Positions 13,146-27,188 of a stretch of DNA of 64,000 nucleotides are shown piece after piece (the first letter of the stretch is position 1; every line of letters starts with the position of its first letter). The stretch lies in assembly GCF_057098645.1 (NCBI RefSeq), contig NZ_CM169472.1. One strand, 5' to 3'. The translations under genes and the position numbers were made by a program. Below the pieces are notes generated by a model. It was given only the letters and a program-made list of their open reading frames with translations. It made no database searches and was not told the DNA's origin.

Positions 13146-13252
13146 CTTCAGGTATCCCCTTTTAAATCCGCAAGTTGCGTGATTTTCTTATCCTCTGATT
13201 TATCAGTATTTTTACATGATAACCCTGTTCAATTTGTGGACTAAATCTAGTT

Positions 13253-13269
13253 TTGGAAAAATATTCCAA
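13253..13269. promoter_or_regulatory. Candidate AllR operator in the allS-allA intergenic region
   Basis: Palindrome ttggaaaa-a-tattccaa. Confidence 0.45.
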
Positions 13270-13374
13270 CTTTTGTGTTGATGTTGTTCTCTTAAGGTTT
13301 TAGATTGCCTGTTATTGAAACCAAGCTGACCGGTCGGCGGTGGTTGAACGGAATTATGTTACAAGGACAAAAAG

Positions 13375-13934: not shown

Positions 13935-14750
13935 ATGACGGAAGTTAGACGGCGCGGCAGGCCAGGACAGGCGGAGCCTGTGGCACAGAAGGGCGCACAG
14001 GCATTAGAGCGGGGAATTGCGATTCTGCAATATCTGGAAAAAAGTGGGGGAAGTTCATCGGTTAGCGATATTTCTCTCAATCTGGATTTGCCGCTCTCCA
14101 CGACCTTTCGCTTGCTGAAGGTTTTACAGGCAGCGGATTTTGTCTATCAGGACAGTCAGTTAGGCTGGTGGCATATAGGATTAGGTGTCTTTAACGTCGG
14201 TGCAGCGTACATCCATAACCGCGATGTCCTCTCCGTCGCCGGGCCGTTTATGCGCCGTCTGATGTTACTTTCCGGCGAAACGGTCAATGTCGCGATCCGT
14301 AACGGCAATGAAGCGGTATTAATTGGTCAGTTAGAGTGTAAATCGATGGTCAGGATGTGTGCGCCACTGGGCAGTCGTCTGCCACTGCATGCTTCCGGTG
14401 CGGGCAAAGCGCTGCTTTATCCGCTGGCGGAAGAGGAGTTGATGAGCATCATTCTGCAAACCGGTTTGCAGCAGTTTACGCCAACTACGCTTGTGGATAT
14501 GCCCACCTTACTGAAGGACCTGGAGCAAGCGCGTGAACTGGGCTATACCGTAGATAAAGAAGAGCATGTTGTAGGTCTGAATTGCATAGCTTCAGCAATT
14601 TACGATGATGTAGGTAGTGTTGTTGCCGCTATCTCCATCTCCGGGCCTTCATCAAGACTGACAGAAGATCGTTTTGTCAGTCAGGGTGAGCTGGTCAGAG
14701 ACACCGCCCGCGATATCAGCACGGCGTTGGGACTGAAAGCACATCCATAG
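13935..14750 (+). CDS. allR: IclR-family repressor AllR
   Basis: 271 aa; N-terminal HTH and IclR effector domain. Confidence 0.9.
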
Positions 14751-14762
14751 TGTCTGTCGCAT

Positions 14763-14787
14763 CCCGCTCTGCGGAGCGGGTTTTTTT
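14763..14787 (+). terminator. Rho-independent terminator after allR
   Basis: cccgctc-tgcg-gagcggg followed by ttttttt. Confidence 0.7.
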
Positions 14788-14802
14788 GACAAAATTTGAA
14801 AG

Positions 14803-14819
14803 TTAGAAAATTTTTCCGA
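14803..14819. promoter_or_regulatory. Candidate AllR operator upstream of gcl
   Basis: tagaaaatttttccgat, half-palindrome gaaaa/ttttc similar to the allS-allA site. Confidence 0.35.
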
Positions 14820-14839
14820 TTAATAGAGGTAGGAATAAA

Positions 14840-16621
14840 ATGGCAAAAATGAGAGCCGTTGACGCGGCAATGTATGTGCTGGCGAAAGAAGGTATCACCA
14901 CCGCCTTCGGTGTTCCGGGAGCTGCAATCAATCCGTTCTACTCAGCGATGCGTAAGCACGGCGGTATTCGTCACATTCTGGCGCGTCATGTGGAAGGTGC
15001 TTCGCACATGGCGGAAGGTTATACCCGCGCAACGGCAGGGAATATCGGCGTATGTCTAGGGACTTCCGGTCCTGCGGGCACGGACATGATCACCGCGCTC
15101 TATTCTGCTTCTGCTGATTCCATTCCTATTCTGTGCATTACCGGCCAGGCTCCGCGCGCCCGTCTGCATAAAGAAGATTTTCAGGCCGTAGATATTGAAG
15201 CAATTGCTAAACCGGTCAGCAAAATGGCGGTTACAGTACGTGAAGCGGCGCTGGTGCCTCGCGTGCTGCAACAGGCATTTCACCTGATGCGTTCTGGTCG
15301 TCCGGGTCCGGTACTGGTGGATTTACCGTTCGACGTTCAGGTTACGGAAATCGAGTTTGATCCTGACATGTACGAACCGCTGCCGGTCTACAAACCTGCT
15401 GCCAGCCGTATGCAGATCGAAAAAGCTGTAGAAATGTTAATCCAGGCCGAACGTCCGGTGATTGTTGCCGGGGGCGGGGTAATCAATGCTGACGCAGCTG
15501 CACTGTTACAACAGTTTGCTGTACTGACCAGCGTTCCGGTGATCCCAACACTGATGGGCTGGGGCTGTATCCCGGACGATCATGAACTGATGGCCGGGAT
15601 GGTCGGTCTGCAAACCGCGCATCGTTACGGTAACGCAACGCTGCTGGCGTCCGACATGGTGTTTGGTATCGGTAACCGTTTTGCTAACCGTCATACCGGT
15701 TCGGTAGAGAAATACACCGAAGGGCGCAAAATCGTTCATATCGATATTGAGCCGACGCAAATTGGCCGCGTGCTGTGTCCGGATCTCGGCATTGTCTCTG
15801 ATGCTAAAGCGGCGCTGACACTGCTGGTTGAAGTGGCGCAGGAGATGCAAAAAGCGGGTCGTCTGCCGTGTCGTAAAGAATGGGTCGCCGACTGCCAGCA
15901 GCGCAAACGCACTTTGCTGCGCAAAACCCACTTCGACAACGTGCCGGTGAAACCGCAGCGCGTGTATGAAGAGATGAACAAAGCCTTTGGTCGCGATGTT
16001 TGTTATGTTACCACCATCGGTCTGTCACAAATCGCTGCGGCACAAATGCTGCATGTCTTTAAAGACCGCCACTGGATCAACTGTGGTCAGGCTGGTCCGT
16101 TAGGCTGGACGATTCCGGCGGCGCTAGGGGTTTGTGCCGCTGATCCGAAACGCAATGTGGTGGCGATTTCCGGTGACTTCGACTTCCAGTTCCTGATTGA
16201 AGAGTTAGCCGTTGGCGCGCAGTTCAACATTCCGTACATCCATGTGCTGGTGAATAACGCCTATCTCGGCCTGATTCGTCAGTCACAACGCGCCTTTGAC
16301 ATGGACTACTGCGTGCAACTCGCTTTCGAGAATATCAACTCCAGCGAAGTGAACGGTTACGGCGTCGACCACGTAAAAGTAGCGGAAGGTTTAGGTTGTA
16401 AAGCGATTCGCGTCTTCAAACCGGAAGATATTGCACCGGCCTTTGAACAGGCGAAAGCCTTAATGGCGCAATATCGGGTACCGGTAGTCGTGGAAGTTAT
16501 TCTCGAGCGTGTGACCAATATTTCGATGGGCAGCGAACTGGATAACGTCATGGAATTTGAAGATATCGCCGATAACGCAGCGGATGCACCGACTGAAACC
16601 TGCTTCATGCACTATGAATAA
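14840..16621 (+). CDS. gcl: Glyoxylate carboligase (ThDP-dependent)
   Basis: 593 aa; position and length match Gcl. Confidence 0.9.
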
Positions 16622-26138: not shown

Positions 26139-27188
26139 TTATTGCGCAAAGGGATTTTTCGTTTCGTATGACGTGTTATAAAGCGCGTCGGAAATTAAAT
26201 ACTGGTAAATATCATCAACAATTTCGATGCCTTCGACGGCGGCTTTGCGTTGTTTAATATCCTGATCCTGTCCGGGATAATAAACCTGATTTAAACCGGG
26301 CGCGGGGGTAATGGCATTTAATTCGCGCATGGTCTGGCTAAGATGTTGACGGAATAATTCGCTGGAGGAGAAAAAGTTCGGGTTAATAACTACATGTAAT
26401 TGCCCCAAATTACGCCCGGCGTGTAAATCGTCATACATCGAACTAACCTGTCGCCCGAACGGTAAGCCGAGTAAGACGCCTGAGAGGACGTCAATCATCA
26501 TCATCAGGCCATACCCTTTCGGCCCGGCTGCGGGGAGCAGAGCATGTACCGCGAACGGATCGGTTGTTGGTGCACCGTTTTTATCGACCGCCCAGGTATC
26601 CGGGATAGACATATTACGCGAGCGGGCGTCGAGCACTTTTCCCCATGCCTGTACGGTAGTCGCCATATCAAAGGTAAGGATCTCGTCGCCTTCTCCCGGC
26701 GCGGCAAAGGCCAGTGGGTTAGTACCGTAGTAAATTTCCGCGCCGCCAAACGGCACCACCATCGGATCGGACTGGCACATCGAAATGCCAATTAATCCGG
26801 CGCGGGCTGCCTGCTGCACAAAATAAGAGATTGCGCCGCTGTGACCCATCCGGCTGATACCGACCACCGCAACGCCATTTTGCTGGGCGGTTTTGATGGC
26901 ATGTTCCATACCCATTTTCGCCGCGACCTGTCCGGCGGCATTGTCGGCATGTAAAATTGCCGAGCACGGCCCGGTTTCCTCAAGACGAAACTCCGGTTCG
27001 CGGTTGGTGCCGCCTTTTGAAATGCGTTCCGCGTAGTATTCCACGCGCACCGCGTCATGAGAGTGGATCCCTCTGGCATCGGCGTAAACCAATACTTCAG
27101 CCACGGTTGCAGCGTGCTCACGTTTTAACCCAGCCTGGCAGAGTTTATTCTCAATTAGCTGGTGGAGTGTTTCCCGACTGATTTTCAT
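26139..27188 (-). CDS. allD: Ureidoglycolate dehydrogenase
   Basis: 349 aa; position matches AllD. Confidence 0.85.
   Translation of the reverse strand: MKISRETLHQLIENKLCQAGLKREHAATVAEVLVYADARGIHSHDAVRVEYYAERISKGGTNREPEFRLEETGPCSAILHADNAAGQVAAKMGMEHAIKTAQQNGVAVVGISRMGHSGAISYFVQQAARAGLIGISMCQSDPMVVPFGGAEIYYGTNPLAFAAPGEGDEILTFDMATTVQAWGKVLDARSRNMSIPDTWAVDKNGAPTTDPFAVHALLPAAGPKGYGLMMMIDVLSGVLLGLPFGRQVSSMYDDLHAGRNLGQLHVVINPNFFSSSELFRQHLSQTMRELNAITPAPGLNQVYYPGQDQDIKQRKAAVEGIEIVDDIYQYLISDALYNTSYETKNPFAQ

Follow-up and report, generated by a model that had tools for sequence, protein, structure and literature searches.

The closest described system is the AllR operator of the gcl promoter (gclP) in E. 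coli K-12, where AllR repression of gcl is textbook regulation and has already been used in reporter strains. The original work on this operator (Rintoul et al. 2002, Walker et al. 2006, Hasegawa et al. 2008) is considered here as it is referred to in passages of PMC12535856, PMC8222616 and PMC11323563. The passage in PMC12535856, which cites Hasegawa 2008 and Rintoul 2002, describes both the allS-allA control region and the promoter of the gcl operon as targets of AllR binding, with glyoxylate as the inducer, and the corresponding passage in PMC11323563, citing Walker 2006, likewise places AllR at the gcl promoter and at allS-allA and describes its release by glyoxylate. A lux reporter has been built on an 82-bp K-12 fragment that its authors describe as tightly AllR-repressed (PMC13300388), and in the same paper the sequence recognized by AllR is given as that of allS-allA, with one differing base that lies outside the 17-bp core. 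The published AllR motif is the 19-nt sequence KTTGGAAWAWTWTTCCAAC (PMC8222616, Table 1), and the BoltzNet paper on AllR ChIP-seq refers to a model for AllR (PMC12059191). The next closest system is that of the paralogous repressor IclR, for which the box TGGAAATNATTTCCA has been published (PMC8222616). The IclR operator of aceBAK/iclR resembles AllR operators in its palindrome, in the GGAAA/TTTCC cores and in the response to glyoxylate, but it serves another regulator and another regulon, and AllR sites differ from the IclR box by an extra outer T/A (TTGG...CCAA) and by adjoining allR in every species.

The window analyzed here, a stretch of 64 kb, is E. coli DNA in which the genes follow the order allS, allA, allR, gcl, hyi, glxR, allW, allB and onward, as annotated in RefSeq for near-identical genomes. 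The cognate regulator is encoded in the same genome: allR (13935-14750, + strand) encodes the IclR-family repressor that recognizes the operator, and its 271-aa product shares 100% identity with K-12 AllR and matches PDB 1TF1 with E = 2e-110. It is followed by gcl for glyoxylate carboligase (14840-16621, + strand, a 593-aa ORF, named after the RefSeq annotation of near-identical genomes), which opens the repressed operon gcl-hyi-glxR-allW-allB-ybbY-glxK. The 89-bp gap between the two ORFs contains the intrinsic terminator of allR (14763-14787, + strand), consisting of the hairpin CCCGCTCTGCGGAGCGGG (14763-14780) and a T-run, and downstream of it the site under study. The terminator is the counterpart of the 3' end of the K-12 small RNA AllZ (b4831), which has been verified by northern blot and for which an own promoter was proposed (PMC8175672). 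AllZ is annotated at 533,629-533,863 in K-12, which corresponds to 14553-14787 (+ strand) of the window, i.e. the 3' part of allR through the terminator, and its 3' end adjoins the putative -35 element of gclP.

An earlier note on this DNA, made from the letters of the sequence, had proposed a candidate AllR site at 14803-14819, between the allR terminator and the gcl start, that would share a GAAAA/TTTCC symmetry with the site in the allS-allA intergenic region. Read directly from the window, positions 14803-14819 are ttagaaaatttttccga. The coordinates are therefore real, and the string quoted with them, tagaaaatttttccgat, is in fact 14804-14820, a one-base shift that is immaterial. The gene labels of the note are correct, since allR is K-12 AllR at 100% identity and gcl is the next gene in the RefSeq annotation, and the site indeed lies between the terminator with its hairpin and T-run and the gcl ATG at 14840. 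The symmetry is also there: the second site, TTGGAAAAATATTCCAA at 13253-13269 (no strand assigned), has it in common with the gcl site, and in the window it is canonical, with 0 mismatches. On the basis of motif, alignment and literature, we attribute TTAGAAAATTTTTCCGA at 14803-14819 (no strand assigned) to the AllR operator of the gcl promoter, whose 17-bp core it forms. Its inner core, gaaaatttttcc, spans 14806-14817, and the extended 19-nt motif around the 17-bp core spans 14802-14820. The two operators of the window are alike in motif and regulator, but the allS-allA operator serves two divergent promoters, and it has AAATATT in its center where the gcl site has AATTTTT.

How well does the gcl site compare with its described K-12 counterpart? 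It aligns base for base with the allR-gcl intergenic regions of K-12 and O145, and it agrees with the K-12 gclP operator in locus, as judged by synteny and alignment, in its distance to the gcl ATG, in the terminator, in the context of the putative -35 element and in the AllR protein. It also falls inside the equivalent of the 82-bp K-12 reporter promoter fragment, which corresponds to 14751-14832 of the window. The operator sequences themselves differ, with GTTGGAAAAATTTTCCAAT in K-12, GTTGGAAAATTTTTCCAAT in O145:H28 and GTTAGAAAATTTTTCCGAT in the window, the last having one substitution in each arm. The earlier note had overlooked these two departures from the canonical TTGG/CCAA arms. Its reading as an AllR site stands, given that the site and the operator of K-12 are orthologous and that the papers cited above place AllR at the gcl promoter, and in view of this orthology, the literature and the conservation in 21 species described below, the word candidate was too weak. 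The evidence supports that this is the known AllR operator of the gcl promoter, with the exact footprinted bases taken from secondary sources. An AllR site upstream of gcl is therefore already known and not in itself new, and the double-substituted allele is a small curiosity. The relief of AllR binding by glyoxylate is described for the canonical site of K-12, in the respective passages of PMC12535856 and PMC11323563, and is a candidate property of the window allele.

The similarity to the motif by far exceeds what can be expected by chance. When the 64-kb window was searched on both strands for KTTGGAAWAWTWTTCCAAC with ≤3 mismatches, and 100 shuffles were searched as control, matches were found at two places only, at 13252-13270 with 0 mismatches and at 14802-14820 with 3 mismatches, the gcl site thus agreeing with the motif at 16 of 19 positions. 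These 4 strand-matches compare with 0.28 expected, and none of the 100 shuffles reached 4. A weight matrix derived from 41 orthologous AllR sites, which gauges conservation among related operators and not affinity, ranked the allS-allA site first in the window (30.2 bits) and the gcl site second (20.8 bits), followed by a third-best site at 9.05 bits, at a background mean of -43. A scan that allows ≤2 mismatches would overlook the gcl operator in this genome, which is a point of caution for motif-based annotation. A text search of the literature for the sequence of the site gave irrelevant eukaryotic matches only.

The alignment of gcl promoters that the earlier note had suggested was run with one genome per species, found by a search for AllR. 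It comprised 21 usable loci from 9 genera (Escherichia, Superficieibacter, Klebsiella, Raoultella, Citrobacter, Buttiauxella, Izhakiella, Atlantibacter and Providencia), and the palindrome is present in all 21 enterobacterial species, in the form TTGGAA-N5-TTCCAA (in one case with TTTCAA) and at 29-44 nt 5' of the gcl ATG; in the window, the distance is 37 nt, and the same place is thus occupied in 21 species. A second copy lies in the allS-allA region of 20 of the 21 loci, the remaining locus being too short to cover that region, and no further copy beyond the gcl and allS-allA sites was detected in any of the 21. When the loci were aligned on the palindrome, the arm columns had a mean of 1.92 of 2 bits, the center 1.19 and the downstream flank 0.67. 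Outside the palindrome, strong conservation is limited to one block, the terminator stem with its T-run, at a fixed distance. The distance from the stem to the operator (14763-14802 in the window) is equal in most of the 21 species, and terminator, -35 element and operator seem to constitute one rigid and compact module of about 60 bp.

These data also bear on the alternative that the symmetry is a chance feature of an A/T-rich promoter spacer, or a hairpin in the gcl leader RNA, without any operator function. The region is indeed rich in A and T, and GGAAAA and UUUUCC could form a stem in RNA. Nevertheless, only 0.28 matches would be expected by chance, and the arms are almost invariant over 9 genera while the flanks drift. 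The center changes between species (AAAGT, AATAT, AAAAC, AAAAG) in a way that is not compensatory, the loop would have only 1-3 nt, and the putative transcription start lies 3' of the repeat, so that we regard this explanation as the most far-fetched of all those considered. Hardly more credible is a binding of IclR to the palindrome, be it instead of or alongside AllR. In our own comparison, the box TGGAAATNATTTCCA matches the canonical form of the gcl site (core positions 2-16) at 12 of 14 specified bases, and both IclR and AllR respond to glyoxylate (PMC11323563). On the other hand, this resemblance of 12/14 is found in the context of gcl/allR and not of aceBAK/iclR, the literature assigns gcl repression to AllR (PMC12535856, PMC13300388, PMC11323563), the site follows directly 3' of allR in 21 of 21 species, and it is paired with an allS-allA site of the same motif. 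Motif, position, orthology and the presence of the regulator place the site in the class of AllR operators, although the window copy lacks the canonical TTGG and CCAA arms of this class.

In the left arm, a G>A substitution at 14805 changes TTGG to TTAG, unlike in K-12, O145:H28 and all near relatives, and in the right arm, an A>G substitution at 14818 changes CCAA to CCGA, unlike in K-12 and O145:H28 (no strand assigned to either). Among the 46 symmetrized unique half-sites of the 21 species, the position corresponding to 14805 is G in 45, and the position corresponding to 14818 is A (T on the other strand) in all 46. In the weight matrix, the canonical O145-type operator scores 32.3 bits, the operator with 14805A alone 27.5 bits, with 14818G alone 25.6 bits, and with both changes, as in the window, 20.8 bits. 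A TTAGAA arm occurs in only one of the 41 orthologous sites, which is the allS-allA site of Atlantibacter subterranea (L027:2273-2289), a natural AllR box TTAGAAAATTTTTCCAA whose arm is like that of the window.

Within E. coli, these changes are rare. A 66-nt query was constructed such that megablast seeds only on genomes with at least one of the variants, and in 5,426 complete E. coli genomes it identified 6 carriers. Three of them have 14805A alone (493/89, MB53 and 7_12_15B), and three, of the O111 type, have 14818G alone (95NR1, 95JB1 and the O111:H8 strain 8B); both changes together were found in none of the 5,426. The exact O145-type 66-mer was present in at least 1,992 genomes, and the exact K-12-type 66-mer in at least 1,985. 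Metagenome contigs, retrieved with a pattern in which neither position was specified, were canonical (G and A) in 27 of 27 cases, and the double variant was found neither in these matched contigs nor in the public draft assemblies of the same lineage. The flanking haplotypes and the Gcl proteins differ among the carriers, which suggests more than one origin of the changes. In one of the carriers, MB53 (NZ_CP073939.1, 14805A alone), gcl is annotated as frameshifted, which could reflect a decay of the pathway or an assembly error.

The window derives from an O145:H28-related strain and, over 64 kb, is separated from RM12761 by 20 SNPs and an indel of 3 bp. Among these 20 SNPs are the two operator changes, 14805 G>A in the left arm and 14818 A>G in the right arm. 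The indel is an insertion of ATC at 26494-26496 in allD relative to O145:H28 RM12761; 95NR1 also has a longer allD (1,050 vs 1,047 bp). Draft assemblies of the same lineage were found by exact look-up of the YbbP protein of the window, and AllS was also looked up. One of them, L040 (GCA_015672775.1), has the canonical operator and is 3 SNPs away from the window in 14.4 kb, and 2 of these 3 SNPs are within the 17-bp operator core, for which we calculate a chance of about 4e-6 for a given 17 bp. Two further assemblies, L039 (GCA_019492485.1) and L041 (GCA_012249965.1), are 2 SNPs each from the window and carry 14818G only. Comparison of these near-identical genomes shows a series, from the canonical operator over 14818G to 14818G with 14805A. 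A dismissal of the substitutions as noise specific to the window was considered and rejected: 14818G is also present in sibling public assemblies of this lineage, and the variation therefore looks genuine. A further difference in the region, codon 101 of allS (window 12844), which encodes Q in the window and L in K-12 and O145:H28, was considered as a private change of the regulon and dropped. The exact AllS protein with Q101 is widespread in E. coli (551 index blocks, mostly beside a K-12-type gcl operator), and L101Q was therefore set aside as evidence, being a common polymorphism across distant backgrounds.

What would be the consequence of the two arm changes? We consider it very probable that the site is the gclP operator of AllR, in a copy that bears two rare arm changes and that is presumably weakened by them. 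Judged from the sequence comparisons, the double variant would be expected to bind AllR less well and to permit a higher basal expression of the gcl operon. In an O145:H28-related lineage that is nearly clonal, 14805 G>A and 14818 A>G would have been acquired one after the other, and the gcl operator would thereby have been weakened while the allS-allA operator and AllR remained unchanged. As AllR is 100% identical to the K-12 protein, there is no compensating change on the side of the protein. The score of the gcl site remains well above background, so that AllR may still repress the operon to a large extent, and the allS-allA operator of Atlantibacter with its TTAGAA indicates that one such change is tolerated somewhere.

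A more radical possibility is that the arm changes abolish AllR binding altogether, which would render the gcl operon constitutive and the sequence a mere relic. This would be in line with the position of both changes at invariant or nearly invariant positions of the 46 half-sites, with a loss of 11.5 bits in the score, and with the stepwise appearance of the changes in a lineage that has almost no other variation, as expected under selection for derepression. Yet 14 of the 16 specified core positions are kept, among them those of both GAAAA/TTTCC cores, the score continues to exceed the next best in the window by 11.7 bits, and the TTAGAA arm is part of a presumably functional operator in Atlantibacter. 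A complete loss of operator function is therefore unlikely, and we prefer the reading of a weakened operator. Only tentatively, and with more doubt than belief, one may go further and suppose that the operator is being dismantled stepwise in this O145:H28-related lineage under selection for a higher basal expression of the glyoxylate/allantoin genes, and that the same substitutions recur independently in unrelated lineages, namely in O111, in sorbitol-fermenting O157, in one poultry isolate and in one bovine isolate. If so, operator tuning would be a recurrent adaptive route in E. coli. The canonical, single and double alleles constitute a natural series for determining the share of each arm base in AllR affinity and in gcl repression, and this allelic series permits the question of whether a derepressed glyoxylate/allantoin catabolism is selected in Shiga-toxin-producing lineages.

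Mechanistically, AllR, encoded immediately upstream, recognizes the palindrome TTGGAAAA-N-TTTTCCAA, which is the canonical form of the AllR palindrome. A putative -35 element of gclP, TTGACA (14786-14791, + strand), is positioned at the end of the T-run of the allR terminator and lies within the equivalent of the 82-bp K-12 promoter fragment. In most of the 21 species, TTGnnn or TTAGAC is found 10-11 bp 5' of the operator, and Citrobacter R56 has TTCACA. At a spacing of 17 bp after TTGACA, a putative and weak -10 element, AATTTT (14809-14814, + strand), would coincide with the center of the operator, an assignment for which spacing is the only argument; a consensus sigma-70 scan of 14650-14900 reported no promoter. 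The palindrome would thus be placed 11 bp 3' of TTGACA, over the likely -10 region and 37 nt before the gcl ATG. As it covers this region, bound AllR should exclude RNA polymerase, and repression would be achieved by occlusion, a geometry that is as provisional as the -10 hexamer and the transcription start from which we infer it. Glyoxylate would free AllR and thereby permit transcription of the operon from gcl to glxK. Transcription would start near 14821, resulting in a leader of about 19 nt with the GAGG ribosome-binding site.

The location of the -10 element was also considered further downstream. In Providencia, the ribosome-binding site follows immediately 3' of the operator and leaves no space for a downstream -10 element. 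A -10 element ATTAAT/TTAATA (14819-14825), combined with TTGAAA at 14796-14801, was rejected, because the leader would lose its ribosome-binding site and because of the Shine-Dalgarno sequence that abuts the operator in Providencia. It was further considered whether the substitutions create a new promoter, and no convincing hexamer was found.

A last and minor observation relates to the gcl start itself. A weak AllR-like half-palindrome, GTAGGAATAAAATGGCAAA, is present at 14829-14847, where it is centered 27 bp 3' of the operator and overlaps the Shine-Dalgarno sequence and the start codon of gcl. With 3.5 bits, it is the 7th best site in the window. AllR is described as tetrameric, and it is therefore conceivable that GTAGGAATAAAATGGCAAA serves as an auxiliary AllR site, but the constraints imposed by the coding sequence and the ribosome-binding site account equally well for its conservation.
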